A DNA stretch of 59,734 bases, the filler included. It is 5 parts of 5 records of this genome, joined end to end, with 100 filler letters (N's around TTAATTAATTAA, not from the genome) between each part and the next. Parts side by side here need not be neighbours in the genome. Positions count along the whole stretch, not along the records: positions 32,765 to 39,193 come from SRR31156797_8242; 4 more parts are not named here. One strand, given 5' to 3'. This document shows, in pieces, positions 4,901 through 52,236 of the stretch. Below the pieces are notes generated by a model, which saw only the letters and a program-made list of their open reading frames with translations, made no database searches and had not been told where the DNA came from. A program made the translations under genes and the position numbers. Positions within the stretch are counted from its first letter, which is position 1; each line of letters starts with the position of its first letter.

Positions 4901-6492
4901 TGGTTTGGATTCCAGCGATATTTAGGCTTGTTGAGTTAAAAGGTTTCTATGAAAAATGTGAAAAAAAATATGGAACAGCTATTCCTAATCCATCCATAAG
5001 AGCAAGAGGTGGATTTGTGAAATCTCCTGTTTCCTCCGAGAAATTGATTGAGCTAAGTCATGGAACATTGATTAAATTATTTAATCATTATGATTCATAC
5101 GATAAATGGGAGGATAGTCTATCTGGCCCACTAATAGGTGGCCGTGAAAGTTTAGAAAGCTCATTAAGAACTGCTGCGTCATGGGTACCAATGCATTTTA
5201 TCCCCTTGGTGCCAATGATAGCTGATGCTGCGTTATCAATGAGTTTTGTTTATTCAATCATTGATGGATTAAGCCTGCACCTGCGATGTCGTTTTGGCAA
5301 CCTTAGTAGTTCAGATTGGAAGTCTATTGAACCTTTGCCTGATGGGAGAGCATTAGCAGTAACCGTTCTTGATTTGGTGGAGCGATTTTGTAGAAATGAT
5401 GACCGTAGGTATACCACATCCCAAGCTGTTGAAGCTTGTAGCGAAATTCTTTATGATAACCTGTCTCTGGAGAGAATTTATTTTCAGCTTTGGTTGTTGG
5501 GCTTGCACAAAAATCCAGAGCCGGAGAAAGATGAAGATTCTCGTGATTTAGTCGGCAGTGGCATTAATTCTATCCGGGGCATTGCTGCCGAATCCGTATT
5601 AAAAATATGTAATAATTTATTGGAGAATCAAAAGCCAATAACAGAGGAATTAAGGCAATTACTTTTTAGGTACGCAAAAGACCCTTCAATGGTTGTGAGG
5701 GCAACTTTCCTCAGAAGATTTCCATATTTTCATAGCAAGGAGGTTGAGTTAGGTTGGGAACTATTTATGCTGTTAGTTCAAAACTATAAGCCGAGATTAT
5801 TAAAACATTTAGAACAGATCTTATATTATCAGTATCATGCAAATTTTGATCACGTGAAACCTTATTTGGATTTGTTAAAGACCGTTGATGACGAAAAGAG
5901 TTCTGCTGCTTGGGGTCGGTTAGCGACCCTGTCTTTTTTGTCAGACCATATTAATGAAGAAGAATTATGGCAAGGTGTGCATGAACGCCATGAGGCTACG
6001 AGAGAAGGTATGGGGCAGGTATTCGTTGCAAATATTAATAGCTCTAAAAGTACAAGGGCCTGCATAAGAGGCTTATCCCGGTTAATGGAAGATGATGAAC
6101 TGAAATCAGTTTTTTCTGAATTTGAACGCTCTCTTGAGGATAAGGAACAATTAAGTTTTGTACCCTTTTCCTTGGTTAAACTATTTATCACTAATAGTCC
6201 TGCAGAACATGTTAGAGAAATTGATGGAGTATTTCACTGGCTAGAACAAAACGTTCTGGTGACGCCAAATAAAGTACTTGAGATATTGGAAGGCATTATA
6301 AATAAATTATCTGATTTATCAGGGCCGATTTATTTTCATAGGCCTGATGCCTTGATTGCAACCTTAAAATTGCTTCTTCAGGAAGCGGATTTGTCAGACG
6401 AAAATGAATTTATAAATAAAGTGTTATACGTTCAAGATTGGTTTCTTGATCAAGGTGTTAAGGAATTAGAAACTCTGCTTGATACGGCGTGA
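1963..6492 (+). CDS. STAND/NACHT-like NTPase with an N-terminal Cap4-like PD-(D/E)xK nuclease and a long helical C-terminal sensor region (Avs/NLR-like antiphage protein)
   Basis: N-terminal RGDTYQ...DDIVI...FLQAK nuclease motifs, Walker A variant EDVAGGGKT, Walker B IIILDSLD, then ASR, PQNL and FSHQT STAND motifs. About 900 aa of predicted helical C-terminus. ATG at 1963 preferred over GTG at 1951. Confidence 0.75.
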   Translation: MSLAGIRSNRGDTYQRSVALFLIVEMLLNENIAGLQVDAIALPDENYLIYGDDIVIIFSNGKKRFLQAKVNQSKYQYWNLTDSVLKKELISAKNQLIADPSCDFYFYSRTPFSVLQRLIEEVNLYPNHQSFLRVAPQGQKDTLESLVELWENDQPAAFNLVKRIGIGDHHSSEEWQRYSLRLLKTNFSQSETAFELIYNYVDRQHSKLGDPCFVINRKDVLDMLKKHGIYNALGFNEKILVEKFRAFSLQGRQWVRTIGGSIINRPELELLKQAVSTNMPSVLLEDVAGGGKTCILLDLMDYLDKQDDIATLFIKGDLFASINSLSELSEFGLPEDFLAQCAHLAGIRQLIIILDSLDVLAVGRSHKSLQSFLGLIANLNNVPNITIIAASRSFDAKYDPLLREMSWAEVVTVKPLSYKDDISPLLTEWGINPDNINSTLQSLLLVPQNLRLFYVLIQKGITLSDIEEHDLYDLYIQELIEKDQNLGIEIVNELQNIAVDLLKIRSYKFPKNLLKVSAQELQRLQSQEIITEISPHQLMFSHQTLADALRIRQAQKNGVDLHQFVISQPQLPFIRPVVRSFILSLRLVQPDQFTKQMRKFFLEKSISMHLKRLSVETLAEMVPREDDLLIVSVLSSRLPTLFSRFLDRASSEEWFSLLHNSWLVKVNISTIENITGSVLRYVSRFLDGHEEALISLWNRAFDEQWLPVDNLVWLISSDLKKLKRWDIDGVTLLLKKLLGAKEKSGGDVGHTICKYIEATDCGDELLWQFIIRDSESIANIKRGRELKLNCRKHDLLNEDFLVERLKSSDILFGNVIDYLLQFSQNFSPEEGSYPFESNLLDSTSYNRRHTDWDTRHQDSIHEFLDAIESAMKFRATTNDPCWKGYESRLRNSRELGVQYLLCETYLTNIPDYLEGIEQQLINKKLLRYGHLEYELGMLAAKAYPLLSYKVQEDHQWLLLQLYDDVKDKYDWTERAIYKHLVWIPAIFRLVELKGFYEKCEKKYGTAIPNPSIRARGGFVKSPVSSEKLIELSHGTLIKLFNHYDSYDKWEDSLSGPLIGGRESLESSLRTAASWVPMHFIPLVPMIADAALSMSFVYSIIDGLSLHLRCRFGNLSSSDWKSIEPLPDGRALAVTVLDLVERFCRNDDRRYTTSQAVEACSEILYDNLSLERIYFQLWLLGLHKNPEPEKDEDSRDLVGSGINSIRGIAAESVLKICNNLLENQKPITEELRQLLFRYAKDPSMVVRATFLRRFPYFHSKEVELGWELFMLLVQNYKPRLLKHLEQILYYQYHANFDHVKPYLDLLKTVDDEKSSAAWGRLATLSFLSDHINEEELWQGVHERHEATREGMGQVFVANINSSKSTRACIRGLSRLMEDDELKSVFSEFERSLEDKEQLSFVPFSLVKLFITNSPAEHVREIDGVFHWLEQNVLVTPNKVLEILEGIINKLSDLSGPIYFHRPDALIATLKLLLQEADLSDENEFINKVLYVQDWFLDQGVKELETLLDTA

Positions 6493-6652
6493 TCATTTTG
6501 GATTTGCACTTTATGTAAATTGATCCAGCGGCTTTGTTCAACAATAAAAATCAAACGGGTGAGTCGGTTATTTGGGGTGTTAAAGCAAGAATGATTGTTT
6601 AGCTCATTAAAAATAATTGAATAATTCAAACAGCAAAATAAAGGTACCCAGT

Positions 6653-7069
6653 ATGCAACCATGGGTTATTCACGCTGTGATTGCTATGGTAAGTATCACA
6701 GCTATGATGGTTCTATTCAAAGAACTTACCGATAGAAATATATCGACAGAAATCATAAATTTATATTTTTTTTTATTTACAACCGTTGCCATATTCTTTT
6801 TTGTTTTAATTAGAAAAACGAGTTTACAATTTCCAGTTGATAGTACTTGGCATTTTATTGCATTGGCTGCTATTGCAGTAAGTTATAACTATTATAATAT
6901 ATCTGCCATCAAACATGCTCCCAATGCAGGCTATGCAGAAGCAATCGTTTCATTCAGGTTCGTTGCTTTGGCAATTATAATGACAATGTTTCATGGTGCA
7001 GAGCTAACTATCAAAAAAATAATTGGTATGATTTTAGTATTTATTGGTATTATCTTAGTAGGAATATAA
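6653..7069 (+). CDS. Single-domain EamA/DMT-family small membrane transporter
   Basis: About 5 hydrophobic segments and an AIKHAPNAGY...GAELTIKKIIGMILVFIGIILV ending typical of EamA. Likely ATG start at 6653. Confidence 0.7.
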   Translation: MQPWVIHAVIAMVSITAMMVLFKELTDRNISTEIINLYFFLFTTVAIFFFVLIRKTSLQFPVDSTWHFIALAAIAVSYNYYNISAIKHAPNAGYAEAIVSFRFVALAIIMTMFHGAELTIKKIIGMILVFIGIILVGI

Positions 7070-7318
7070 TTATCTTTAAGGATGATAAAAAATATGCGGT
7101 TTAAAAAAAATGAAAACTTGAGAACTAAGATTATTTAAGGGTTTCCCCGATTGATTACTCCTGTACTTTGTGCACAAAACTACGTCACAACAAAAATAAT
7201 AATGAGGAGGTATATCAAAAAGCAAACTCATTTATAGATAGCAGATCCAATTCTACATCAGAAATTAAGAACTCATACACCATATTAATTTTTTTTATAC
7301 ACTGAAAAGGATAATCGG

Positions 7319-7804
7319 ATGATATCGATAGATAAACTAGGATTCGGAACTTCAAAAGATCTCAGTAGAGTCACAGGTGGTGAAGGTAAAGTTTATGAAC
7401 GGACAATTGAATTTGGTAGGACTGTAATCAATATAGAGAATATTGGTTCGTTAGTACTGATCGATGAAAAAAGAAATCATGCTCTAACAATTGTCGCAAT
7501 TATAATTGGATTATTTGGTTTTTCAGTTTTTTCTCTCAGTTCGTTATTCGGTATTGTGGTATTAGCCATCGGGCTCGCATTGGGTGCTTGGAATATTTTG
7601 AAAAAAATGGAAGTATATCTTTCAATAGGTACTTGTGACGGTAAATCTACAATAATAGTTTCAAAAAATCGTTTATTCCTGAAGAAGGTCAGAACATTAA
7701 TACGAAAAAAAATTGATACTAAAAGTAAAAGCTCTGCGACGATTAATATAGAAAACAGTGCTATTGCAATAGGTGATTCGTCGCACGCGGTTAGCAAAAA
7801 TTAA
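7319..7804 (+). CDS. Two-TM membrane protein (DUF6232-like) with a C-terminal INIENSAIAIGDSSHA motif
   Basis: Beta-rich N-terminus, a TM hairpin, then YLSIGTCDG...SKN..FLKKV..I resembling DUF6232 proteins; the short tail is shared with the next gene. Confidence 0.55.
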   Translation: MISIDKLGFGTSKDLSRVTGGEGKVYERTIEFGRTVINIENIGSLVLIDEKRNHALTIVAIIIGLFGFSVFSLSSLFGIVVLAIGLALGAWNILKKMEVYLSIGTCDGKSTIIVSKNRLFLKKVRTLIRKKIDTKSKSSATINIENSAIAIGDSSHAVSKN

Positions 7805-8180: not shown

Positions 8181-8280
8181 NNNNNNNNNNNNNNNNNNNN
8201 NNNNNNNNNNNNNNNNNNNNNNNNTTAATTAATTAANNNNNNNNNNNNNNNNNNNNNNNNNNNNNNNNNNNNNNNNNNNN
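8181..8280. other. Artificial contig linker (N44-TTAATTAATTAA-N44)
   Basis: N runs flank a 12-mer with stops in all six frames; the same structure occurs four times. Confidence 0.98.
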
Positions 8281-13513: not shown

Positions 13514-14098
13514 ATGAATATTCTAAGAAAAATATTACCTCCTGTAAAGTGGAGGATTCCTGTCATTATCGTTTCAGCAATTCTATTTGGACTTTTTTTC
13601 TTTCTTTTTTATGTCTCCAATGCTTCATCTTATTTATCCGATGACCCAAAAACCTGTGTGAATTGCCATATTATGGTTCCTCAATATGCCACATGGATGC
13701 ACAGTTCTCATAGGGAATGGGCAAACTGTAATGATTGCCACGTACCCCACAACAACGTTTTGAATAAATACTATTTTAAAGGAAAAGATGGAATGCGACA
13801 CGCAACAATTTTTACAATGCGTGCAGAACCACAGGTAATTAAAATAAAAGAAGAAGGTCACCATGTAGTACAGCAAAATTGTATTCGTTGCCATAGTAAT
13901 CTTATTACCGATTCAAAAATGAATACTATTCATTTCGATTTTCATTCTAACAGAGTAGGCAGAACTTGTTGGGAATGTCATCGCGAAGTCCCTCACGGTA
14001 GGGTTAACAGCCTTTCGAGTACGCCTAATGCTAAAGTTCCATTACCCGAAAGTCCTGTACCTAATTGGTTAGAAAAAGCATTAAAAGAAACAGAATAA
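13514..14098 (+). CDS. nrfH: Cytochrome c nitrite reductase small (quinol-oxidising) subunit
   Basis: N-terminal TM helix, SYLSDDPKTCVNCH, four CxxCH motifs (CVNCH, CNDCH, CIRCH, CWECH); directly upstream of nrfA. Confidence 0.95.
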   Translation: MNILRKILPPVKWRIPVIIVSAILFGLFFFLFYVSNASSYLSDDPKTCVNCHIMVPQYATWMHSSHREWANCNDCHVPHNNVLNKYYFKGKDGMRHATIFTMRAEPQVIKIKEEGHHVVQQNCIRCHSNLITDSKMNTIHFDFHSNRVGRTCWECHREVPHGRVNSLSSTPNAKVPLPESPVPNWLEKALKETE

Positions 14099-14119
14099 TA
14101 ACATAGAACCATTAAACTC

Positions 14120-15619
14120 ATGAAATCATTTAGCGAACAAATCAAAGAAAAACCTTGGAAAGGTTGGGTACTTTTCCTGGGAACTATTGTAGTTGTATTC
14201 CTTTTAGGATTATTAGCATCCAGTGTTGTGGAAAGAAGAAGTGAAGCGGTATTTGCCTATGCACCCCAAAACGATTTTTCTCAGTTTGAACCTCGTAACC
14301 AAAAGTGGGGCGCTAACTTCCCTCGTGAGTTTGAATCGTATTATAAAACTTCCGACACAACATTTGCAAGTAAATACAATGGCGCAGCAATGATTGACGA
14401 GCTTGAAGAAGACCCTAAACTGGTAGTTCTGTGGGCTGGCTATGGTTTTTCAAAAGACTATAACCAGGGAAGAGGTCACTATTATGCTGTTGAAGATGTT
14501 CGCAATACTTTAAGAACCGGTGCACCCAATGAAGAAGTGAAAAGTCCGATGCCAAATACTTGTTGGACATGTAAAAGCCCTGATGTTCCAAGAATGATGA
14601 ATGAGGTTGGAATTGCAGAGTTCTATAAAGGTTCATGGGAAAAATGGGGAGCCGAAATAGTTAACCCAATTGGTTGTGCCGATTGTCACGATGTAAATAC
14701 CATGCAATTACGCATTTCTCGTCCAGCATTGATTGAAGCGTTTGAAAGACAAGGAAAGGACATAGCAAAAGCTACACATCAGGAAATGAGAAGCCTGGTT
14801 TGTGCTCAATGCCATGTGGAATACTATTTTAATAAAAAGAAAATTGAAGGAGTACCATATCTGACTTTCCCATGGGATAATGGAATGTCTGTTGAACAAA
14901 TGGAAGTATATTACGATGAAATGAACTTTAGTGACTGGACACATAAACTCAGTAAAGCACCTATGTTGAAAGCCCAACATCCTGGTTATGAAACATACTT
15001 AACAGGTATTCATGCTGAACGAGGTGTTTCTTGTGCTGATTGTCACATGCCATATAAAAGCGAAGGAGGTGTTAAATTTACCGACCATCACATTCAAAGT
15101 CCGTTAAACAATGTTGCTAATTCATGTCAGGTTTGTCACCGTGAGGAAACAGGCAGACTAATAGCTGATGTATTCTCTCGACAGGATAAGATTAAAGAGA
15201 ATGTTACCATACTCGAAAATTTATTGGTGAAAGCACACGTTGAAGCTAAAGCAGCTTGGGATAAAGGTGCGAATGACGAGCAAATGCAAGCAATACTCAT
15301 GGATATTCGACATGCTCAATGGCGTTGGGATTATTCCGTAGCAGCTCATGGTGCATCATTCCACTCACCTGTTGAAACAGGACGGATAGTATCATCGGGT
15401 ATCAAAATTGCCCAAGAAGCAAGAATTAAGCTTACTCGCTTATTAGCAGACCTTGGTCATAATAAAGAAGTTGAAATGCCTGATATTTCGACCAAAGCTA
15501 AAGCCCAGGAATATATTGGTTTAGATATGTCTAAACTAAATTCTGATAAAGAAGAATTTTTAGGGACTGTAGTTCCACAATGGCTTGAAGAAGCCAGTCA
15601 AAGAGAATCGAAATATTAG
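14120..15619 (+). CDS. nrfA: Ammonia-forming pentaheme cytochrome c552 nitrite reductase
   Basis: Active-site CWTCK plus CADCH, CAQCH, CADCH, CQVCH; LWAGYGFSKDY, KAQHP, HAQWRWD. Confidence 0.97.
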   Translation: MKSFSEQIKEKPWKGWVLFLGTIVVVFLLGLLASSVVERRSEAVFAYAPQNDFSQFEPRNQKWGANFPREFESYYKTSDTTFASKYNGAAMIDELEEDPKLVVLWAGYGFSKDYNQGRGHYYAVEDVRNTLRTGAPNEEVKSPMPNTCWTCKSPDVPRMMNEVGIAEFYKGSWEKWGAEIVNPIGCADCHDVNTMQLRISRPALIEAFERQGKDIAKATHQEMRSLVCAQCHVEYYFNKKKIEGVPYLTFPWDNGMSVEQMEVYYDEMNFSDWTHKLSKAPMLKAQHPGYETYLTGIHAERGVSCADCHMPYKSEGGVKFTDHHIQSPLNNVANSCQVCHREETGRLIADVFSRQDKIKENVTILENLLVKAHVEAKAAWDKGANDEQMQAILMDIRHAQWRWDYSVAAHGASFHSPVETGRIVSSGIKIAQEARIKLTRLLADLGHNKEVEMPDISTKAKAQEYIGLDMSKLNSDKEEFLGTVVPQWLEEASQRESKY

Positions 15620-15630
15620 AATAAATTACC

Positions 15631-16851
15631 TTGCAACATACTAAAGAAAAAAAGAGCTTATGGGTACTTCCCTGGAAGTATCCCGAAAGCTTCTTAATAG
15701 CTTTTGCCTTATTTTTGGCATCATTAGGGATTGAGTTTATAACAGGTACTACAGTTCCTAAAATCCCTTGGCCTGCCAACCTTATTTCAATAGCACTAAT
15801 AGCAAACTTATCGTTATTGCTATACCTGTTATCAAAAAAAATATCGGTTTTCAAATGGTTTTATAGTGTTCCTGCATCCATTGCCGGGGTTACTTTATTC
15901 GTAGTACCTTCATTATTGTTAGCTTTGATTCCGCAAAAATCATCAGATTCCTTATTCTTTCTGTACGATGTTACATCGAGCTGGACTTACACAATCGGAG
16001 TAGTTTTCTTTTTAATCATACTTGGAACAGTAACCATTAAACGCATCACAAAGCTTTCCAAAAAAAATACCGGTTTCTTTCTAAACCATTTCGGTTTATG
16101 GCTGTGTATTGCATCGGCTCATTTAGGTGCAGGAGACATACAAAAACTGAATATTTATCTTGAAGAAGGCAAAACTACCTGGTATGGAATTGAGAATGGA
16201 AATAGAACAGAAGAATTAAATTTTGCTATAAAGCTAAGAGACTTCTCCATTGAAGAATACCCTGCAAAAATTGCTTTTGTGGAAAGCAGTACAGGAGAAA
16301 TAATCAACCAAAACAACAAACCCTTAATGATAGACCCACACGAGGGCTTACAATTCAACTATAAGGATTTTGATTTAAAGATTGACCAACTTTTAATGAG
16401 TTCTGCTCCAGTTATGAATAGGTTTGAACCTGTGCTGGGCATGGGGGCAACTCAATCCTTAAAGATTCTGAAATCCTTTAATGAAAAGGTTGATACTATT
16501 TGGATTTCAAGCCCAGGCATTTTGTATCGTCAAGAAATGTATCAGATTGATTCAAGCACAATAATGCTTATGACCAAACCCGAAGCAAAACGTTTCCTGT
16601 CTGAAATTACGGTTTATGAAAAAGCCGGAGCTGTATATGATACCATCATTGAGGTAAATAAACCAATCAAGATTGCCGGATGGAAGATTTATCAGACAAG
16701 TTATGATGAAACAATGGGACGTTGGTCAACGAAAAGCATTTTGGAACTGGTTAAAGACCCTTGGTTGCCATCGGTATATTTGGGATTCTTCTTACTCATT
16801 GCAGGAACTTTCTATCTAATCTGGACTGGTAAAAGGAAGGAGGACATGTAA
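15631..16851 (+). CDS. ResB/CcsB-like cytochrome c biogenesis protein
   Basis: Multiple TM helices, GFFLNHFGLW, VNKP...GWKIYQ..YD and DPWLP.VY.G motifs; lies in the nrf operon. Confidence 0.8.
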   Translation: MQHTKEKKSLWVLPWKYPESFLIAFALFLASLGIEFITGTTVPKIPWPANLISIALIANLSLLLYLLSKKISVFKWFYSVPASIAGVTLFVVPSLLLALIPQKSSDSLFFLYDVTSSWTYTIGVVFFLIILGTVTIKRITKLSKKNTGFFLNHFGLWLCIASAHLGAGDIQKLNIYLEEGKTTWYGIENGNRTEELNFAIKLRDFSIEEYPAKIAFVESSTGEIINQNNKPLMIDPHEGLQFNYKDFDLKIDQLLMSSAPVMNRFEPVLGMGATQSLKILKSFNEKVDTIWISSPGILYRQEMYQIDSSTIMLMTKPEAKRFLSEITVYEKAGAVYDTIIEVNKPIKIAGWKIYQTSYDETMGRWSTKSILELVKDPWLPSVYLGFFLLIAGTFYLIWTGKRKEDM

Positions 16852-17636
16852 TGTGGCATAATTTTGAAATATTCGCGATTATTTCGTTAGTGACATGGAT
16901 TTTGGCTATTGGTGCATCACTTTCAGACAAGACGGGCAAAATCGCCAATTTGACTGCAATCCTTGGTACTTTAAGCTTGGCTGTATTTATCGTTTTACTT
17001 TGGACAAATCTCCAACGCCCACCATTAAGGACTCTTGGAGAGACAAGACTTTGGTATTCATTCTTCCTGGCAATTTCTGGCTATGTAATATTTAAGCGAT
17101 GGAAAATCAAGTTAATGCTTATGTATTCACTTGGTATGGCAATCCTGTTTTTGTTATTGAACTACCTAAATCCTGATATTCACAGCAAAACACTCATGCC
17201 GGCATTGCAAAGCATTTGGTTTGTACCTCATGTAATTGTGTACATGATTGCCTACGCTCTATTGGGCTTATCTGCACTTTTCGGATTACTAGGATTATAT
17301 GCCATTAGAAAAGACAACCTGAAAGAGGATTTTGTACTAAAAACAGATAACATCGTTTATATAGGCTTTGGCTTTCTTACGTTAGGGCTTATTTTTGGAG
17401 CTTTATGGGCAAAAGAAGCATGGGGGCATTATTGGACTTGGGATCCTAAAGAGACATGGGCTTTTCTTACTTGGGCTGTATACCTCGTTTATATTCATTT
17501 CAGGATAAAAAGTAATTTAAGCCACAAAAGCGTTTTTCTGATTTTACTTTTAGCATTTGTTGTTCTGCTTATTTGTTGGTTTGGTATTAACTATCTTCCT
17601 GCGGCACAAAATAGTGTGCATGTTTATTCGAGTTAA
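16851..17636 (+). CDS. ccsA: Cytochrome c biogenesis protein CcsA (system II)
   Basis: WWD domain WAKEAWGHYWTWDPKETW, PALQS.WF.PHV and the terminal SVHVY His ligand. Confidence 0.92.
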   Translation: MWHNFEIFAIISLVTWILAIGASLSDKTGKIANLTAILGTLSLAVFIVLLWTNLQRPPLRTLGETRLWYSFFLAISGYVIFKRWKIKLMLMYSLGMAILFLLLNYLNPDIHSKTLMPALQSIWFVPHVIVYMIAYALLGLSALFGLLGLYAIRKDNLKEDFVLKTDNIVYIGFGFLTLGLIFGALWAKEAWGHYWTWDPKETWAFLTWAVYLVYIHFRIKSNLSHKSVFLILLLAFVVLLICWFGINYLPAAQNSVHVYSS

Positions 17637-32664: not shown

Positions 32665-32764
32665 NNNNNNNNNNNNNNNNNNNNNNNNNNNNNNNNNNNN
32701 NNNNNNNNTTAATTAATTAANNNNNNNNNNNNNNNNNNNNNNNNNNNNNNNNNNNNNNNNNNNN
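32665..32764. other. Artificial contig linker
   Basis: N44-TTAATTAATTAA-N44. Confidence 0.98.
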
Positions 32765-33326
32765 TCGTTAATCCGGTTTTTTCCAAGAACTCCAATTTAT
32801 ACCCTTGCCGTTGAGCAGCTTCAGTAAAAGGTGTTTTTCCTTCCGGAGCATAACCAACTTCGAACTTTTTTAACATATCATCGCGAAAAGTACGTTCGCG
32901 GAAATAACTCAGACCGATTGTCCTGCCTTCATTCTCCTCCCATATGTACCGCGTAAAATATTTCTGTGCAAATCCCGAAACGATCATCAAACTTTCACGT
33001 GCATCTTTCAGTTGTTTTTGCTCCTCGGTTTCCTCCTCCTCAACAATCTCAATATTGTATTTTTTGGCCAGCCATTTTAAAGCTTCCGGGTAACTAAGGT
33101 TCTCGTGTTCCATTATAAAGTTAACCGAGTTTCCTCCTTTTCCACAACCAAAACACTTAAATATTCCTTTGGCAGGAGACACGGTAAAAGAAGGTGTTTT
33201 TTCGTTATGAAACGGACATAATCCAAGCATGTTAACACCTCGCTTTCGAAGCGTAACAAATTCAGAAACCACATCAGCAATATCGGCGGCATCAATTATC
33301 CTCTCAACTGTAGCATGATCAATCAT
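32765..33326 (-). CDS. dnaG: DNA primase, N-terminal part (truncated by the contig end)
   Basis: GLCPFHNEKTPSF.V...FKCFGCGKGG CHC2 zinc finger; start MIDHATVERI. Confidence 0.95.
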
Positions 33327-33486
33327 TGCTACAAAAGTATCAGAAATAGTAGGAATCAATCGTCAAATTACAGGAATAATATTCACAATTAACAGGAGGA
33401 AACCTTTGCCATCTTTCAAAATTGAAAAAAACAAAGTATCTTTCATTTCTTACTCAATACTCATTACCTTAGTCTAAAATCTTAAA

Positions 33487-34173
33487 ATGAAAAAACTCGT
33501 TATTCTTTCAGGTGCCGGCATGAGCCAGGAAAGTGGCTTAAAAACCTTTCGTGATATGGGAGGACTTTGGGAAAACTACGACGTAACCGAAGTGGCAACT
33601 CCCGAGGCATGGGAACACGATGCGGGCCTGGTTTTACGGTTTTATAACGAGCGGCGCAAACAACTTTTTTCTGCAGAGCCTAATGCGGGGCACTTGGGTA
33701 TAGCAGCGTTGGAAAACTGGTTTCACGTTGAAGTTGTAACACAAAACGTGGATAATTTGCATGAAAGAGCAGGGAGTTCGAAAGTATTACACCTACACGG
33801 GGAACTAATGAAGGCAAGAAGTACAATAGATCCTTTTTTGGTTTACGAACTTGATCACTGGGCACTCGACCTTGGCGACAAATGCGAAAAAGGAAGCCAA
33901 CTGCGACCCCATATCGTTTGGTTTGGCGAGGGTGTGCCTATGATGGGCAAAGCCATTGGTATAGTTGAACAAGCCGACATACTGGTTGTGGTAGGCACTT
34001 CGCTTGCTGTATATCCGGCAGCCGGACTGGTAAATTACGTGAAACAGGATACCCCAATCTTTGTTATTGACCCGAACCGACCGGAGGTATACCAAAACAA
34101 TGTAATTTATATTGAAAAAAAAGCTGGAAAAGGAATTGAGATTTTAAAAGAAAAACTGGAAAAACTAAAATAA
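33487..34173 (+). CDS. cobB: NAD-dependent protein deacylase (class III sirtuin)
   Basis: SGAGMSQESGLKTFR, FYNERR (YxxR), TQNVDNLHERAG, LHG, RPHIVWFGE, GTSLAVYPAA. Confidence 0.92.
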   Translation: MKKLVILSGAGMSQESGLKTFRDMGGLWENYDVTEVATPEAWEHDAGLVLRFYNERRKQLFSAEPNAGHLGIAALENWFHVEVVTQNVDNLHERAGSSKVLHLHGELMKARSTIDPFLVYELDHWALDLGDKCEKGSQLRPHIVWFGEGVPMMGKAIGIVEQADILVVVGTSLAVYPAAGLVNYVKQDTPIFVIDPNRPEVYQNNVIYIEKKAGKGIEILKEKLEKLK

Positions 34174-34785
34174 ATGAAACAGCTTATACTAACGTTTGTA
34201 TTTCTTTTTTCATTAAACATTTTATGGGCGCAACGTTTTGATGCCGGATTAATTGCCGGATTTAATGGATCTCAGGTAGAAGGTGATGCTTTTAAAGGGT
34301 ATCACAAAGCCGGTATCCTGGCCGGACTCTTTGTACAAACTGATATTGCCCCGGCCATAGTGGCTGGTATGGAGATAAAATATTCCCAAAAAGGATCGAG
34401 ACGTAATTATGATCCGAAAAAGCCTGATGTTGAGCAATATATTATGCGCTTAGGCTACATCGATATTCCGGTTTTTATGGCCTTTAGAACCAACGAAAGA
34501 AGTATGATTATCGGAGGAATAGCTCCTGGAATACTAATTCACTCGAAAGAAATTGGTGCATACGGCGAATTTCCGCCAGAGGACCAGCATGAATTTAAAA
34601 ATTTTGATCTTCAACCTTTCCTTGGATTTCAGTTCGATTTTCTGGAACATGCATCAGTAGATCTGCGTTTTGCACTCTCTGTGATTCCAATACGTGAAAA
34701 ACCAATTGATACCAATTACTATTGGCACAATAACCAATTTAATAACGTAATCTCGCTTGCATTGTATTACAGGCTTGGCCGTTAA
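34174..34785 (+). CDS. Outer-membrane beta-barrel (PorT/porin-family) protein
   Basis: Signal peptide, AG.NGSQV.GD, E..YSQKG, L.YIDIP and a terminal LYYRL. Confidence 0.75.
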   Translation: MKQLILTFVFLFSLNILWAQRFDAGLIAGFNGSQVEGDAFKGYHKAGILAGLFVQTDIAPAIVAGMEIKYSQKGSRRNYDPKKPDVEQYIMRLGYIDIPVFMAFRTNERSMIIGGIAPGILIHSKEIGAYGEFPPEDQHEFKNFDLQPFLGFQFDFLEHASVDLRFALSVIPIREKPIDTNYYWHNNQFNNVISLALYYRLGR

Positions 34786-34798
34786 AACACCTCTGCAA

Positions 34799-35224
34799 CT
34801 AGCTATTCACCATCCATTTCGAAAAATCATCAAGATATTTCCAGAAAGAGGCCAATACGTTTTCAGGCAATTTAAGTTTTTGAAGGACTTCTCTGTAACA
34901 ATTTAGCCATTCTATTCTGGCTTCAGCAGTAATTTTAAAAGGTAAATGCCTACGGTTTAATTGGGGTTTTCCCCTGTTTTGATTAAAATAATCGGGGCCT
35001 CCACAAATTTGAATAAAAAAATCGGCAGAATGTTCTTTCGCTTTCTCCAGTGCAACCGGGTTTTTGGGGAACAAATCTTTTATAGAACTTTTTACCACCA
35101 GGTTGTAATGATCGCTAACCATTTGGCGCATTCCATCTTCTCCCATAATCTCCAGCATTTTTGGAGAAGGGAGTGTAACTCCGGGTCGCACTCCCTTAAA
35201 ATATTTGCTAATTACCAATTCCAT
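34799..35224 (-). CDS. Truncated (2/2) globin, group II-like
   Basis: FFIQICGGP.YF...G.P.L.RRHLPF.I...R.EWL.C with the proximal His; likely start MELVIS. Confidence 0.8.
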   Translation of the reverse strand: MELVISKYFKGVRPGVTLPSPKMLEIMGEDGMRQMVSDHYNLVVKSSIKDLFPKNPVALEKAKEHSADFFIQICGGPDYFNQNRGKPQLNRRHLPFKITAEARIEWLNCYREVLQKLKLPENVLASFWKYLDDFSKWMVNS

Positions 35225-35275
35225 TCCTGCCGTTTTTGTTTCTGAAACAAAAAAAAGCAAAAGTTGTTGAAATTA

Positions 35276-36091
35276 TTACTTACCAAAAACCCATCCAATT
35301 CGAATTCCACTGGTGAGTGCAATCGGAAATTCTTCGGGAGCAACAATAAAGCCATAAGGTAATCCATTGTAGTCATCAGAACCTATTCCATAACCTACTC
35401 CAACAAAAGTATCCACTAAAAATGCGTCATCAAATACCCATTGTTTTCCAAACTTTAACATGATAGCCAAGGTTACTTTACTTTCCCGGTCATCAGAATA
35501 CCAATAATCACCGTTTGAATAATAATAATCATAATTGTCACTGTCGTATTTCATGTACCTCAATGCTATCTCTGGAGCGATGTAAGCTCCTTTTAGAATA
35601 TGAGAATAATGCATTCGATTCATATAATAATCGGGATTACGCGTAAACTTATATGCAAACTTTCCGTAAATCCCTATCGGATCAATATCCTGAACATCGT
35701 TTCCTAAACCTACAATGCCTAAAGCGGTTTCCCACGACCGGCCAGGTTTTATACTTCTTTCAAAAGCAAATTCTGTAGTTCCGAATAATGGCGATAGAAA
35801 ATTTACTTTTAAGGCATTTTTCGATTGATTAGCATAATACTCCGAATTTTTAAAGGTACTTGTTCCAATCTCAACTACTTCTCCAGTTCCAAATTCTACA
35901 CGTTCAACCAAGGCATTATCAATTCCAAAAACTACTTTGGAGTTATCGTTGTAATAATATTTTACCTGAACTGCTCCCAGTTCGGTAATCTTACAACTTA
36001 TGGTGTCTCCCGATTTTTTAACAATGGTGTCTTGAGCAAAGGTTGAGATGGAAAAAAATAATAGAAATAAAAAGGCGGTTAATGTTTTCAT
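35276..36091 (-). CDS. Outer-membrane protein with a small N-terminal domain and a C-terminal beta-barrel
   Basis: Signal peptide MKTLTAF...AQD, DTIVKKSGDTI.CKI.E domain, C-terminal GIRIGWVF. Confidence 0.65.
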   Translation of the reverse strand: MKTLTAFLFLLFFSISTFAQDTIVKKSGDTISCKITELGAVQVKYYYNDNSKVVFGIDNALVERVEFGTGEVVEIGTSTFKNSEYYANQSKNALKVNFLSPLFGTTEFAFERSIKPGRSWETALGIVGLGNDVQDIDPIGIYGKFAYKFTRNPDYYMNRMHYSHILKGAYIAPEIALRYMKYDSDNYDYYYSNGDYWYSDDRESKVTLAIMLKFGKQWVFDDAFLVDTFVGVGYGIGSDDYNGLPYGFIVAPEEFPIALTSGIRIGWVFGK

Positions 36092-36185
36092 CTGTTTTCT
36101 GTTTTTTATTGTTTGTTTTCGACAGTTAAATTTTGTGCCGCAATTTATCAATAAATAACATATTTTAAACCGCCAAGATCTTAAA

Positions 36186-37058
36186 TTAATGAAAAGGAAT
36201 ATAAATTTCTGTACGTAAATCGTTCTCTGCAGTTTCTTTACAATCGTTCAGGTATTTCTCAAAACATGGAACATCTCTCAATTCCACTTCGCTCTTAAAC
36301 AGCCATTTCCCAAAAATATATTCATAACTTTTGTGCAACAGATGGTATCCTCCAACATGGGTAAAAACGGCATATTTGCCACCCTCAATATTTTGCACTC
36401 CTATTTCTCCCTTTGAACTAAATGGTTTATTAACTACAAGACAGGCATCGTACCGGAGCTTTTCGGAATCAGTTACTTTTGGATCGTCATAACTTATCCC
36501 AATATATTCCTTTTCGGCTGTAAAAAAGTCCTCCTTTACTGCAAAATTGCATATATCTTTCCAGGCCTTTTCTGCACTTTTATTATAATCACCAAATGCA
36601 CGTGCAAATACTACTTGCTTTGTTTTGATTGTTCTGATTTCCGGTTTCAGCATTTGTAAATTCTCCATGGCATTAAATTTTATTTTTGATTCATTGTTTT
36701 TTAGAAATACATGTTCACCTTTTTTGTATTCTCCGGGAGAAATTCCAAACCGGCGTTTAAACGCCCTATTAAAAGACGCCTGATTTTCGTAGCCCACTTT
36801 AAAAGCTATTTCCCCTATGGGTATTTCACTAAAACAGAGAAGACTAACAGCTGCCTCCAAACGCCGTCGTACAATATATGACCCTAAAGGCTCGCCCAAG
36901 TAGGCACTGATAATTCGATGAAAATGAAAAGCTGAATAGTTGCTCTGTTGAGCCAGGTTCTCCAAATCCAGTTTCTCACTCAAGTGCGAATCAATATAAT
37001 TAACCACTTGGTTTATTTGCTCGTAATAATGGTTTAAAGTCTCCGATTTTACATTCAT
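36186..37058 (-). CDS. AraC-family regulator with a GyrI-like effector domain
   Basis: S.FHFHR.....GE, GYE....F.RAFK..FG.SP; C-terminal YDDP..T...LRYDAC, GGKYAVF.H.G and TEIYIP. Confidence 0.92.
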   Translation of the reverse strand: MNVKSETLNHYYEQINQVVNYIDSHLSEKLDLENLAQQSNYSAFHFHRIISAYLGEPLGSYIVRRRLEAAVSLLCFSEIPIGEIAFKVGYENQASFNRAFKRRFGISPGEYKKGEHVFLKNNESKIKFNAMENLQMLKPEIRTIKTKQVVFARAFGDYNKSAEKAWKDICNFAVKEDFFTAEKEYIGISYDDPKVTDSEKLRYDACLVVNKPFSSKGEIGVQNIEGGKYAVFTHVGGYHLLHKSYEYIFGKWLFKSEVELRDVPCFEKYLNDCKETAENDLRTEIYIPFH

Positions 37059-37104
37059 GAATCAAAAATACCGGATCTTATTTTTAGCTGTTTTTCCATC
37101 CTTG

Positions 37105-37806
37105 CTAAATATCGGCATAAGCCAAAGTTGCAACACTAATTTGCACACCCGGAAGTTTTAACAACTGACAGGCACAGGCTTCCAAAGTGGAGCCAGTGGT
37201 TACCACATCATCAACAAGAAGTATATGTTTTCCTTCAATCTCCTCCGAATTTTTAAGTTCAAATATATCTTCAACATTTTGCCAACGCTCGAACCGGTTT
37301 TTTCGAGTTTGTGTAGAAGTATGTGTTTTACGAACCAGGTTTTCATTAAAGAGTGGCTTTTTAAGCACATTGGCCAAACCTCGCGCAATATATTCGCTTT
37401 GATTAAATCCCCGGAGTTTTTTCTTCTTCGGATGTAAAGGCACCGGAATAATACCATCAATCAACCGAAACGAATCCGAGTCAAGAAGGGTAAAACCAAA
37501 CTTTCGTCCTGTTTCATAACCCAAATCTTTTAATCCTTTATACTTCACAAAATGAATCAAATGTTGATATTTACTTCCTTTTTTATAAGAAAAAAAAGCC
37601 GTTGCATTTTCAATTTGGGTTCTTCCCCAAAAAAGCTGAGCAACTTTGTTATCTTTTTTAAAATGAAAATTAGTAAGTGGCAAATCGTTCCAACATGCAA
37701 AACAAACATGCTTTTCCTGCGTAATCAGTCGATCTCCACAACAAACGCATAAATCGGGGAAAAAAAGTCCCAACACATCCGATATTCCCTGTTTGAGCAG
37801 TTTCAT
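37105..37806 (-). CDS. ComF-family amidophosphoribosyltransferase-like protein
   Basis: N-terminal CxxC...CxxC, PVPLH...RGFNQS, LLVDDVVTTGST. Confidence 0.9.
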   Translation of the reverse strand: MKLLKQGISDVLGLFFPDLCVCCGDRLITQEKHVCFACWNDLPLTNFHFKKDNKVAQLFWGRTQIENATAFFSYKKGSKYQHLIHFVKYKGLKDLGYETGRKFGFTLLDSDSFRLIDGIIPVPLHPKKKKLRGFNQSEYIARGLANVLKKPLFNENLVRKTHTSTQTRKNRFERWQNVEDIFELKNSEEIEGKHILLVDDVVTTGSTLEACACQLLKLPGVQISVATLAYADI

Positions 37807-38001
37807 GATGGGAAGTTACAAAATCTTTCTTATCACTTATTAATCTTAGCTTAAAACTCAACATGCACTGATTAACAATTCTTTAACGCTCTAATAATTT
37901 ATGCATAAGCCAAAAGTGACAAAAGCCTCTTATATTGCTAATGTATTTTTTAGAGAATATTTCCCTTATCTCTCTTGTATTCCTCTCAAGAAATTATCTC
38001 C

Positions 38002-38029
38002 AAGGTTGTCGCGTTCGAGGCAACCTTTT
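38002..38029 (+). terminator. Rho-independent terminator-like hairpin in the divergent intergenic region
   Basis: AAGGTTGTC...GGCAACCTT followed by a T-rich tract. Confidence 0.5.
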
Positions 38030-38206
38030 GTTTATATAAAAACTAAAATAGGTACTATCTTCTTCCTTCACGTCTTATAACTATAGACAGAATTATTCAT
38101 TTAATTCCAACTCTTTTTAAAAATTAGCGAATCTATTACTTTGGAAAGAGAATTTATTAAATTTGATAACTTTTATAGAATCAACGTACCAATAAAACCA
38201 CAAGCT

Positions 38207-39193
38207 ATGTTTAAACGCTTTGGCGATTATCTTAAAAAGAAGCTATTGCTACTCGTATTATTCGGCTTTATTATAGGAATTATGACCACTATATGGTCGC
38301 ACAAAGCCATTGAAGCTACTTCAACTCCCGAGTCATGCGAAATGTGTCATATTCACCCGCATGCAATGGATTCATGGAAACTTTCAGTACACCACGAGAC
38401 CCGTGTTGGAATCCAGATTGGCTGTGTAGATTGTCACCTTCCTCCCAAAGGGCAAGGTTATTTGAAAGAGAAAGTAAAAGCTTCGGTTAGAGATGCCTAT
38501 GGTTTAATCTTTAAAGACAGTGCCGATTTTAACTGGGAGGCGAAATCAACTTTTGACCTGGCACAACATTTTGTTTTTAAAGAATCTTGTATCAATTGTC
38601 ATAAAAACCTGTTCCCTCTAACTTTAACTACCGAAGGGCAAGATGCCCACCTGTATTATTCTTTAAACGAAGAAGAATTACGTTGTATCAATTGTCATTT
38701 AAACGCTGGTCACTACAATCCGAATGCCCTACATGCTAAAAATGTAGATTTTGGCAGTACAGATAACGAAAATCAGGAAGAATACTCCTATGCAACAGAA
38801 GTTTCGAAACATGAAGATTATACTGAAACGATTCCAAAAACAACTATTTCTTTCAACATGAAAGCTATACCAGGAGGTAGCTATAAAATAGGAAGCCCGC
38901 AGTCGGAGCAATACCGCAAAAATGATGAAGGTCCGCAGAAAACGGTTAATATTAGCCCGTTTTTTATGGCCGAAGTGGAAATTACCTGGGATGAATATAT
39001 GGCTTTTTATAGCGAAACTGCAGCAGAAGGCCGCACAACAGATACAGAAGGTACACGCACACAAACCAATGTTGATGCCATTTCAGGACCAACACCGCCT
39101 TATGGACAACCCGATCAAAACTGGGGACTTGGAATCCGTCCGGCCATTACGATGAGCTTTCATTCAGCAGAGGTTTATTGTAAATGGTTATCA
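38207..39193 (+). CDS. NapC/NirT-type tetraheme cytochrome c fused to an FGE-sulfatase (SUMF1/EgtB/PvdO) domain; truncated by the contig end
   Basis: TM anchor, TST.ESCEMCH, CVDCHLP, CINCH twice; then MKAIPGGSYKIGSP...EGP...V.ISPFFMAEVEITWDEY..F and A..YCKWLS of the FGE fold. Confidence 0.8.
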
Positions 39194-39293
39194 NNNNNNN
39201 NNNNNNNNNNNNNNNNNNNNNNNNNNNNNNNNNNNNNTTAATTAATTAANNNNNNNNNNNNNNNNNNNNNNNNNNNNNNNNNNNNNNNNNNNN
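39194..39293. other. Artificial contig linker
   Basis: N44-TTAATTAATTAA-N44. Confidence 0.98.
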
Positions 39294-40538
39294 CTCATTC
39301 ATAAAGGCCCGGGCCTTCTCCCCAATCCTTTTCCGGTAGTCTTCGTCTTCAACCAACCGCCTCATATAACCTGCCGCCTGTACCACATCGGCATCCGCCC
39401 AGACCGAATTTCCCGGAAGATAGTAATCGCCCTGGGCCACTTTTTTTAGTGTATAATCTATCAGACAGGCATTTTCCCGGTTGGTGAAATCCGTATTGCC
39501 GGAATAATTGGTCGCGATGACGGGCTTTCCCAATTTCATGGCCTCGGCCATCCCCAGACCAAACCCCTCAGCCCGGTGAAGAGAGACATATACATCGCAA
39601 CTATAGATTAAATCGAGCATCCGATCTTTGTCATAGGTATCATTAAAAACCTGGATACGCGGATCGCCCCTGACCCATTCTTGAAGCGTCTCATAATCCT
39701 TTACCTGCTGCCGGACCGACGTAACCAGTTTGCTCTTGATCACAAGCGTCACGTTTCGTTTGTGCCCGGGAAAAGCTTTCCTGAAAGCCGCTATAACGGC
39801 TTTTGGGTTTTTTCGATAAATACGGGAAGAAAAATCAAGAGAAAAAAGGAATACAAAAGCGTCTTCAGCAATATTCAGTTTTTTTCGCAAGTTTTTGCGA
39901 GACAGTGAGAAATCCACGGCCATCGGCATATGCAAAACCGGCACAGAGGCCTTCTGCGACATAACCCCCTGGACATACCGGCTGGGCGCCCAGATTTCAT
40001 CCAGAAAGTTCATGGCATACAGCCATTCTTCCGGATAATCGCTCAACTCCCAGAATCCATAACCGATGTTATATCGATTTTTGAATATCTCGGGATTCAC
40101 CGCATGCAATTCGATTACAGCCCCATTGTTCATACAAAAAATATTGGTTTGATGGGGATTGTCCGAATCCAGCAGTTGTGCCAGGCTATGATCCCTCTGC
40201 CGGTGCAGCGTCTTGTCGTAATTATACAGGGAAAAAGGGATGTGGCCGGCTGCGCATGATCTGGCCGTATACCGCAAATGCTCACCAACCCCGAATTCAC
40301 CAAAGACATAGCCGATAATGTTGCAACCCGGCATATACCCTTTGGTTACCCCCGTGTTCCGATATCGACCATTTTCGAAAAGCAGCTTTCTTTGTCCGTC
40401 GCCTGAATCACCCTGCAAAATGATACCGGTCATTTTCCCATCAATTGATGAGGGCAATACAAAACGGAGCATATGGATAAGTGCCGGATATTTACTTCCC
40501 CATTGATAAAAGAATCGGATGGTTTTGTTGATCAACAT
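39294..40538 (-). CDS. GT4 glycosyltransferase (C-terminus truncated)
   Basis: YNIGYGFWEL, DEIWAPS, RKNP, DVYVSLHRAEGFGLGMAEAM.GKPVIATNYSGN. Confidence 0.88.
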
Positions 40539-52136: not shown

Positions 52137-52236
52137 NNNNNNNNNNNNNNNNNNNNNNNNNNNNNNNNNNNNNNNNNNNNTTAATTAATTAANNNNNNNN
52201 NNNNNNNNNNNNNNNNNNNNNNNNNNNNNNNNNNNN
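52137..52236. other. Artificial contig linker
   Basis: N44-TTAATTAATTAA-N44. Confidence 0.98.

Follow-up and report, generated by a model that had tools for sequence, protein, structure and literature searches.

A tetrahaem NapC/NirT-type cytochrome fused to an FGE-like domain and encoded beside an exported Gfo/Idh/MocA dehydrogenase in Bacteroidota: a possible flavin-linked route to the quinone pool

Among the genes of Prolixibacteraceae-like Bacteroidota is one that joins a four-haem cytochrome of the NapC/NirT type to a domain that folds like formylglycine-generating enzyme (FGE). We describe it here from a stretch of DNA of 59,734 nucleotides (the window), which consists of five contigs joined by N runs around TTAATTAATTAA, the spacers lying at 8181-8280, 32665-32764, 39194-39293 and 52137-52236. 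The fusion gene closes the contig at 32765-39193: its reading frame, on the plus strand, is open in translation from the ATG at 38207 through 39193, giving 329 residues, and meets the N spacer at 39194. Homologues start at the ATG equivalent to 38207 and not at the upstream TTG at 38141. The gene is a conserved one of about 510 codons, of which the window holds the first 329 (38207..39193), the rest being cut off by the contig end. Used as tblastn queries, the orthologue C-terminus (about 180 residues are missing here) and the partner gene introduced below gave no match elsewhere in the window. The window copy is thus truncated, and it has no feature beyond those of its orthologues.

The cytochrome half begins with a stub rich in lysine and arginine, presumed cytoplasmic, followed by a hydrophobic stretch that is the predicted N-terminal membrane anchor (residues 13-30, 38243..38296; this and the following features are all on the plus strand). 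In the AlphaFold2 model of the full-length orthologue P0123 (locus L024), the anchor is part of one long helix covering residues 2-39. The NapC/NirT-type domain (Pfam PF03264, Cytochrom_NNT) spans residues 10-173 (38234..38725) and scores 92.3 bits against a cut-off of 24.1. It contains four haem motifs: CEMCH at residues 44-48 (38336..38350), CVDCH at residues 73-77 (38423..38437), and two CINCH motifs, at residues 128-132 (38588..38602) and 160-164 (38684..38698). The first motif is followed by I-H, in the place where NrfH has x-M. The protein belongs to none of the named NCBIfam equivalogs against which the cytochrome part was scored, since it falls below every cut-off (NrfH, 70.8 vs 134.2; TorC, 68.4 vs 478; NapC/NirT, 57.4 vs 310.6; NapC, 42.7 vs 349), and the full-length orthologue is likewise below the NrfH, NapC, NirT and TorC cut-offs. 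A hydrophilic linker (38726..38863) leads to the second domain; in the orthologue model, residues 178-195 of this linker have a predicted local distance difference test (pLDDT) score <50. The end of the linker contains YTETIP, a sequence that stand-alone relatives of the second domain likewise conserve at their N-terminus.

The second domain is the first ~110 residues (220-329, 38864..39193) of an FGE-sulfatase fold (Pfam PF03781), scoring 43.5 bits against a cut-off of 23.3 and covering profile positions 7-109 of 255; in orthologues the complete domain scores 131-138 bits. The original prediction had read this gene as a membrane anchor and four CxxCH motifs followed in frame by the start of an FGE fold, and both translation and Pfam uphold that reading. 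It had also placed the junction well inside the contig. The junction is genuine, but it lies only ~390 bases from the contig end, so that "well inside" was generous.

Evidence that the two domains belong to one protein comes from a database search that returned 3675 proteins at E <= 0.001. The best 120 of these 3675 (hereafter the best 120) are 69-81% identical to the query, and all 120 carry both Pfam domains, as the domain-architecture check suggested in the original prediction had called for; 119/120 have the four CxxCH motifs. Most are 509-524 residues long, and three shorter ones look partial. Eighty genome loci are colinear with the query, and their labels are nearly all Draconibacterium, Maribellus, Mariniphaga, Tangfeifania or Prolixibacteraceae. 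Moreover, a Logan contig of 9292 bases from run X1 spans 37900-39193 without a difference, gap or joint and extends ~1.3 kb beyond, so that no misassembly is seen at the junction; X1 is perhaps the source sample, and this contig accordingly counts as a second assembly and not as independent DNA. Another, very abundant contig of X1 (depth ~1375) matches only the 35 bases around haem motif 3 (38573-38607), with three differences; it probably represents a homologue from a different organism of the same sample. Run X2, from marine sediment, yielded only an identical 223-base piece, which is too short to name a habitat.

Does the FGE-like domain make formylglycine? It shares the fold of the true enzymes: P0123 matches solved FGEs at E = 2e-22, and in the AlphaFold2 model of P0123 (mean pLDDT 75.9), built on an alignment of 40 sequences (A2), the FGE fold is confident, most of it having pLDDT >90. 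(The haem domain is ill-defined, as expected of a model that lacks haems.) Where the catalytic cysteines would be, however, P0123 reads RGGTFKSPVGEV, with Ser aligned to the first Cys and Val to the second. The surrounding pattern RGGxF is matched by 88 of the best 120 homologues, none of which has Cys at either catalytic position; the region reads RGG[ST]FKSxxGEV, with Ser in the first position and Val or Ile in the second. In 7 of these 88 a Cys does occur later, at RCA[AS]R, outside the two catalytic positions. Alignment A2 likewise holds no invariant His or Cys that would hint at a metal site, and the FGE-like part is far below the NCBIfam cut-offs for PvdO, GldK and EgtB. Compared with FGE/SUMF1 (PDB 6s07, 1y1e), then, the fusion shares the fold, but its orthologues lack the copper-binding and catalytic Cys pair, the gene has no sulfatase context, and the domain has an extra D-A-I-S-G-P-T loop as well as a family-specific C-terminal DPxxPxSxWW signature. 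Because orthologues lack the Cys pair, the fusion protein, to judge from its sequence relatives, is not a sulfatase maturase.

A different kind of function is pointed to by the gene that follows. In two orthologous loci the next gene encodes a Gfo/Idh/MocA protein of 451-458 residues with a twin-arginine signal (SRRRFLAGAA), a lipobox, a GCGGRG sequence fitting the GxGxxG pattern, an EKP motif and D-x3-H. By tblastn, 78 of the 80 genome loci have this partner on the same strand, 40-200 bases downstream; the contigs of the remaining loci stop too early, at 2 and 244 bases past the fusion gene. The partner is below all NCBIfam equivalog cut-offs (IolG, 80.3 vs 355; the BT_2158 family, 23.6 vs 750), and its closest solved relatives, at weak E-values, are inositol dehydrogenases, DgpA and glucose-fructose oxidoreductase. 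Because the GxGxxG, EKP and D-x3-H motifs are kept, the partner is presumably exported with nicotinamide adenine dinucleotide or its phosphate, NAD(P), bound. In the closest relative (81% identity), the partner is present as a tandem duplicate (L025 11572-14338, plus strand), with copies 73-74% identical to the query Gfo protein.

The pairing extends well beyond the fused genes. With P0123 as query against 301 Bacteroidota genomes, 21 genomes gave matches at E <= 1e-40, at 22 places in all: three fused, a single Draconibacterium genome accounting for two of these, and 19 FGE-like only. Matches of the latter kind span residues ~200-505 and mostly correspond to genes of 314-362 codons that encode a signal peptide of their own; the stand-alone relatives bear either signal peptides or lipoboxes. 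Neighbourhoods were examined at 20 of the 22 places, the other two being a match within a 1367-residue open frame (G229) and an already-seen locus (L087). Directly downstream in 19/20 is a member of the same Gfo subfamily, 40-53% identical. Searching in reverse, with the Gfo protein as query, gave 31/301 genomes at E <= 1e-50, including all 21 that hold a fusion relative. In the other ten Gfo-positive genomes, 11 loci were examined: in seven of the ten genomes the gene immediately upstream of Gfo is FGE-like, though more distantly related, and the rest comprise one contig end, one 761-residue frame with eight CxxCH motifs and one without a visible partner. At the locus with the eight-haem frame (L218 1666-3948, plus strand), the Gfo-subfamily gene is ~1 kb downstream of that frame and no FGE-like gene adjoins. 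The second fusion of the Draconibacterium genome, in Draconibacterium orientale (L110, G001:C44:161500-175000; 4671-7542, minus strand), also forms a pair with a Gfo gene, is 52% identical to the first, has a canonical D-G-V-S-G-A-T motif and adjoins GT2 and PMT-like glycosyltransferase genes. At three stand-alone loci (L123 5139-5789, L124 6991-7641 and L126 5207-5947), a Tll0287-like protein with one CxxCH is encoded directly upstream of the FGE-like gene; these three loci are without apbE, and the Tll0287-like protein perhaps serves the unfused form as haem partner.

The partner resembles a set of known exported enzymes, namely the Zymomonas glucose-fructose oxidoreductase and the BT2158 and AL3 glycoside 3-dehydrogenases. 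Like them, as the accessible sections of PMC8121099 and 10.1101/2024.03.25.586180 describe them, the partner has a twin-arginine translocation (Tat) signal together with Rossmann and catalytic motifs. According to the same sections, Tat-exported enzymes of the Gfo type hold NAD(P) tightly, and how it is re-oxidised is unsettled: recycling of the bound NAD(P)H on a second sugar has been proposed, and cytochromes are one named possibility (PMC8121099; 10.1101/2024.03.25.586180). The partner would differ from these described enzymes, which re-oxidise NAD(P)H with a second sugar, so far as those sections go, in having a dedicated cytochrome encoded beside it. The likeness extends to weak PDB matches and to a xylose-isomerase-like gene with a triosephosphate isomerase (TIM) barrel, often found near the partner: it is near the pair in 10/18 stand-alone loci and in 1/80 loci of the Prolixibacteraceae type. 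BT2160 is not a cytochrome: it is described as a SusR-family regulator. The original prediction had named, beside sulfatase maturation, a respiratory complex or substrate oxidation as alternatives, and it is these that come close to the gene neighbourhood observed. A sulfatase as partner fails in the same comparison, the conserved neighbour being a Tat-exported Gfo/Idh/MocA dehydrogenase.

If the pair passes electrons, the FGE-like domain would seem to need a redox cofactor, and one stretch of it suggests a candidate. Residues 290-296 (39074..39094) read D-A-I-S-G-P-T, a candidate site for covalent attachment of flavin mononucleotide (FMN) by the flavin transferase ApbE, in which Thr296 (39092-39094) would carry the FMN. 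The ApbE target is given as D-x-x-[S/T]-G-A-[S/T], with FMN on the last residue, in the accessible part of PMC12052999, and as [S/T]GA[S/T] in that of PMC8238504. All of the best 120 homologues contain D-[AG]-x-[ST]-G-P-T, more distant fused relatives carry the exact sequences DAISGAT or DAITGAT, and stand-alone forms mostly read D-A-x-[ST]-R-P-[ST], with A-A-V-A-R-P-S in three. No aligned member of the family has lost the final Ser/Thr. At the corresponding position a true FGE reads DAVVPEAPWW, and [ST]-x-x-[ST] is specific to the fusion and stand-alone family. In the P0123 model, residues 275-296, ending in the motif, are unstructured (pLDDT <50) in an otherwise confident FGE fold; this is compatible with a flexible surface loop and proves nothing. 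The site would lie outside the cytoplasm, because the c-type haem motifs, which mature in the periplasm, follow the K/R-rich stub and a single helix.

The distribution of apbE genes bears on this candidate. Pfam scans placed ApbE genes within 6/11 clusters, and a uniform tblastn count was then made over 178 loci, with Gfo sought within 2 kb and ApbE within 6 kb. Among 90 loci with fused genes and a G-[AP] motif, Gfo was found at 87 and ApbE at none; three stand-alone loci with G-[AP] had Gfo at all three and again no ApbE. The 24 stand-alone loci with the R-P motif had Gfo at 20 and ApbE at 14, eight loci with other motif variants had Gfo at four and ApbE at none, and 53 FGE-family genes without the motif, taken as controls from the same metagenome scan with generic FGE patterns, had Gfo at one and ApbE at two. 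One locus left out of the count, L128, has both Gfo and ApbE by tblastn. Among the more distant FGE-like and Gfo pairs, apbE is also beside the pair in 6/7 of these further loci, and the apbE-bearing clusters encode no other protein with a conserved target-like motif. In 5/5 related genomes that hold a fused gene, ApbE is present but elsewhere in the genome. Perhaps the near-canonical forms use the general ApbE of the cell, while the divergent R-P forms would bring their own.

Putting these pieces together, we give about an even chance to a mechanism in which the fusion carries electrons from the bound NAD(P)H of an exported sugar-type dehydrogenase, via ApbE-attached FMN, to the four haems and on to menaquinone. 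One N-terminal helix would anchor the fusion in the cytoplasmic membrane, with the four-haem domain in the periplasm and the FGE-fold domain, devoid of the copper-binding Cys pair, hanging on a flexible linker; the fusion gene and the downstream gene for the Gfo/Idh/MocA Tat lipoprotein, which form a two-gene unit in relatives, would supply the two components of one machine. The dehydrogenase would oxidise a periplasmic sugar or cyclitol, and its bound NAD(P)H would pass a hydride to FMN attached by ApbE to the Thr that ends the D-A-I-S-G-P-T loop. The flavin would then pass single electrons to the four haems, which would reduce menaquinone. A flavin would be needed because going from a hydride to single electrons requires a two-to-one-electron converter, and flow toward menaquinone is suggested because it is downhill by textbook potentials (NAD(P)H about -320 mV, menaquinone about -74 mV). 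Observed directly are the domain architecture, the absence of the Cys pair from orthologues, the conserved pairing with a dehydrogenase, the conserved Ser/Thr at the end of the motif and the apbE genes beside one branch; we infer the physical contact of fusion and dehydrogenase, the flavin, the direction of electron flow and the nature of the substrate.

How would such a protein compare with known electron carriers? With the NapC/NirT family (NrfH, NapC, CymA, TorC) it shares the single N-terminal membrane helix, the four CxxCH motifs and a clear PF03264 match, and by analogy it would likewise link the quinone pool to a periplasmic partner enzyme. It differs from them in carrying an FGE-fold domain and in having as partner an NAD(P)-type dehydrogenase, with electrons probably moving toward quinone. 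With the ApbE-flavinylated carriers (the FMN-bind domains of NqrC, RnfG and NosR, and DUF2271 and DUF3570), as far as the accessible part of PMC8238504 covers them, it has in common a periplasmic redox context and a Ser/Thr-ended motif like [S/T]GA[S/T], and one branch of the FGE-like family has apbE in the same cluster; the FGE-like fold is different from theirs, and the motif is off consensus, with G-P here and R-P in the apbE-linked branch. A wider proposal, which we hold tentatively and at somewhat less than an even chance, is that the Cys-less FGE fold would be a new class of ApbE-flavinylated electron carrier, either joined to a tetrahaem cytochrome or standing free with an ApbE of its own nearby, that moves hydride from Gfo-bound NAD(P)H to haems and quinone as single electrons.

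Several observations weigh against this flavin-based mechanism. The window motif is one residue off the published target, with Pro in place of Ala, and a change of that Ala to Val lowers flavinylation, as stated in the accessible part of PMC12052999. Forms encoded beside apbE depart from the consensus twice, with R-P in place of G-A, and in three the Asp is missing as well. Some of the likeness, namely the Asp-Ala and the Pro-aromatic elements, comes with the fold itself. By tblastn none of the 90 fused genes has an apbE within 6 kb, nor out to about 10 kb, and the presence of ApbE in a genome does not discriminate, ApbE being common in Bacteroidota, control genomes included. The Gfo neighbour, too, is absent within 2 kb for 4/24 R-P-type and 4/8 other-variant genes. 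One of these, the stand-alone FGE-like gene at L111 (6198-11253, plus strand), has after it genes for YceI, ApbE and a cytochrome-type protein of the PSCyt1/PSCyt2/PSD1 kind, and the locus is perhaps a variant module that draws on another electron donor. FGE, sulfatase, Gfo and NapC all go unmentioned in the main texts of two flavinylation surveys, PMC8238504 among them. Finally, the Cys-pair region and the partner gene lie outside the window, so that what is said of both would hold for the window copy by way of orthologues with 74-81% identity.

In order of weight, the alternatives are a docking domain, PvdO-like catalysis, reverse electron flow, sulfatase maturation and an assembly artefact, of which the last two are contradicted. 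The heaviest of these, itself unlikely, is that the FGE-like part is a cofactor-free docking or scaffold domain that tethers the dehydrogenase or binds its glycan, electrons moving by some other route. PorK and GldK use the FGE fold structurally, and structural proteins of this type do match the domain; the conserved gene pairing fits docking equally well, as do the lack of apbE near the fused genes, the off-consensus motif and the lack of an invariant metal-site His or Cys in alignment A2. Against a mere dock, established chemistry calls for a converter between NAD(P)H, a hydride donor, and haems, which accept electrons one at a time; the Ser/Thr is kept throughout at the candidate site, and apbE is strongly enriched in one branch (14/24, compared with 2/53 for other FGE-family genes). 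An improbable alternative makes the domain an oxidase-type catalyst for a small periplasmic molecule, with the haems as its sink and Gfo only a pathway neighbour. The precedent would be PvdO, which is required for dihydropyoverdine oxidation and is not known to carry the FGE cysteines. PvdO (NF051459, 'dihydropyoverdine dehydrogenase') is the best NCBIfam match, at 100.5 bits in the orthologue and 43.7 in the window part, PDB 5hha matches at 2e-17, and the two share a periplasmic FGE fold, an oxidative role and the lack of a known cofactor. The PvdO cut-off is 500, however, far above these scores; no cytochrome is fused to PvdO, whose gene context is also different, the pyoverdine context being absent here; and the tight same-strand pairing with one Gfo subfamily across distant relatives suggests a shared machine.

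Could the electrons run the other way, with the tetrahaem module oxidising menaquinol and the Gfo enzyme reducing a periplasmic keto compound? Characterised NapC/NirT proteins (e.g. NapC and NrfH) are mostly quinol dehydrogenases, and by their PDB names Gfo-family enzymes are ketoreductases as well, but the reduction of NAD(P)+ (about -320 mV) by menaquinol (about -74 mV) would be uphill, and TIM-barrel genes of the sort typical of pathways that handle keto-sugars made by oxidation occur in 10/18 stand-alone loci; we regard this direction as quite improbable. Far less credible is the suggestion in the original prediction of a quinone-coupled, possibly O2-independent FGE that matures sulfatases, which has in its favour the FGE-sulfatase fold and the database name 'formylglycine-generating enzyme required for sulfatase activity'. 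It fails on the replacement of the FGE Cys pair by Ser and Val/Ile, a catalytic Cys being found in none of the orthologue regions examined, and no sulfatase is among the neighbours scanned in two orthologous loci. As for a chimera or frameshift that joined two separate genes, the position of the gene at a contig end of a fragmented assembly might have favoured it; with both domains in all of the best 120 homologues, 80 colinear loci and the second assembler's contig free of gap, joint or difference, its probability is negligible. The more general part of the original prediction, a membrane-anchored periplasmic redox protein in which a NapC/NirT tetrahaem module is joined to an FGE fold, is supported.

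The rest of the window supplies some context. Upstream on the same contig, 33487-37806 holds seemingly unrelated genes, which encode a Sir2 deacetylase and a beta-barrel protein of the outer membrane and, on the minus strand, a member of the truncated-globin family (34799-35260), a regulator of the AraC/GyrI-like type (36186-37058) and a ComF-like phosphoribosyltransferase (37105-37806). The ComF-like gene is the sole upstream gene that is also found upstream in orthologous loci. Other genes cut by spacers include a primase-like gene (32765-33359) and a glycosyltransferase-like gene (39294-40538), both on the minus strand. On another part of the window is an nrfHA operon of the ordinary type (13514-17636, plus strand), composed of an NrfH-type tetrahaem cytochrome (13514-14098), a cytochrome c552 nitrite reductase (14120-15619) and genes for System II cytochrome c maturation (ResB-like, 15631-16851; CcsA-like, 16851-17636). 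If the contigs come from one organism, that organism makes c-type cytochromes and has a second, canonical member of the NapC/NirT family.

The fusion is a real, widespread and uncharacterised membrane protein family. The original prediction knew of no characterised example, and none appeared among the papers listed in the literature searches, which gave no description of a NapC/NirT-FGE fusion or of its FGE-like domain in connection with ApbE; the supplements of PMC8121099 do not mention formylglycine or sulfatase-modifying factor. One consequence would be a correction of annotation, since thousands of these proteins now go by the name 'formylglycine-generating enzyme' or 'SUMF1/EgtB/PvdO family nonheme iron enzyme'. 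If the proposed flavin attachment is true, a new fold would be added to the substrates of ApbE. For Tat-exported Gfo/Idh/MocA enzymes, whose NAD(P) is non-exchangeable in the periplasm according to the accessible sections of PMC8121099 and 10.1101/2024.03.25.586180, the conserved pair would offer a concrete route to the quinone pool, and bacteria that possess it could, if the mechanism is true, respire on sugars oxidised in the periplasm.

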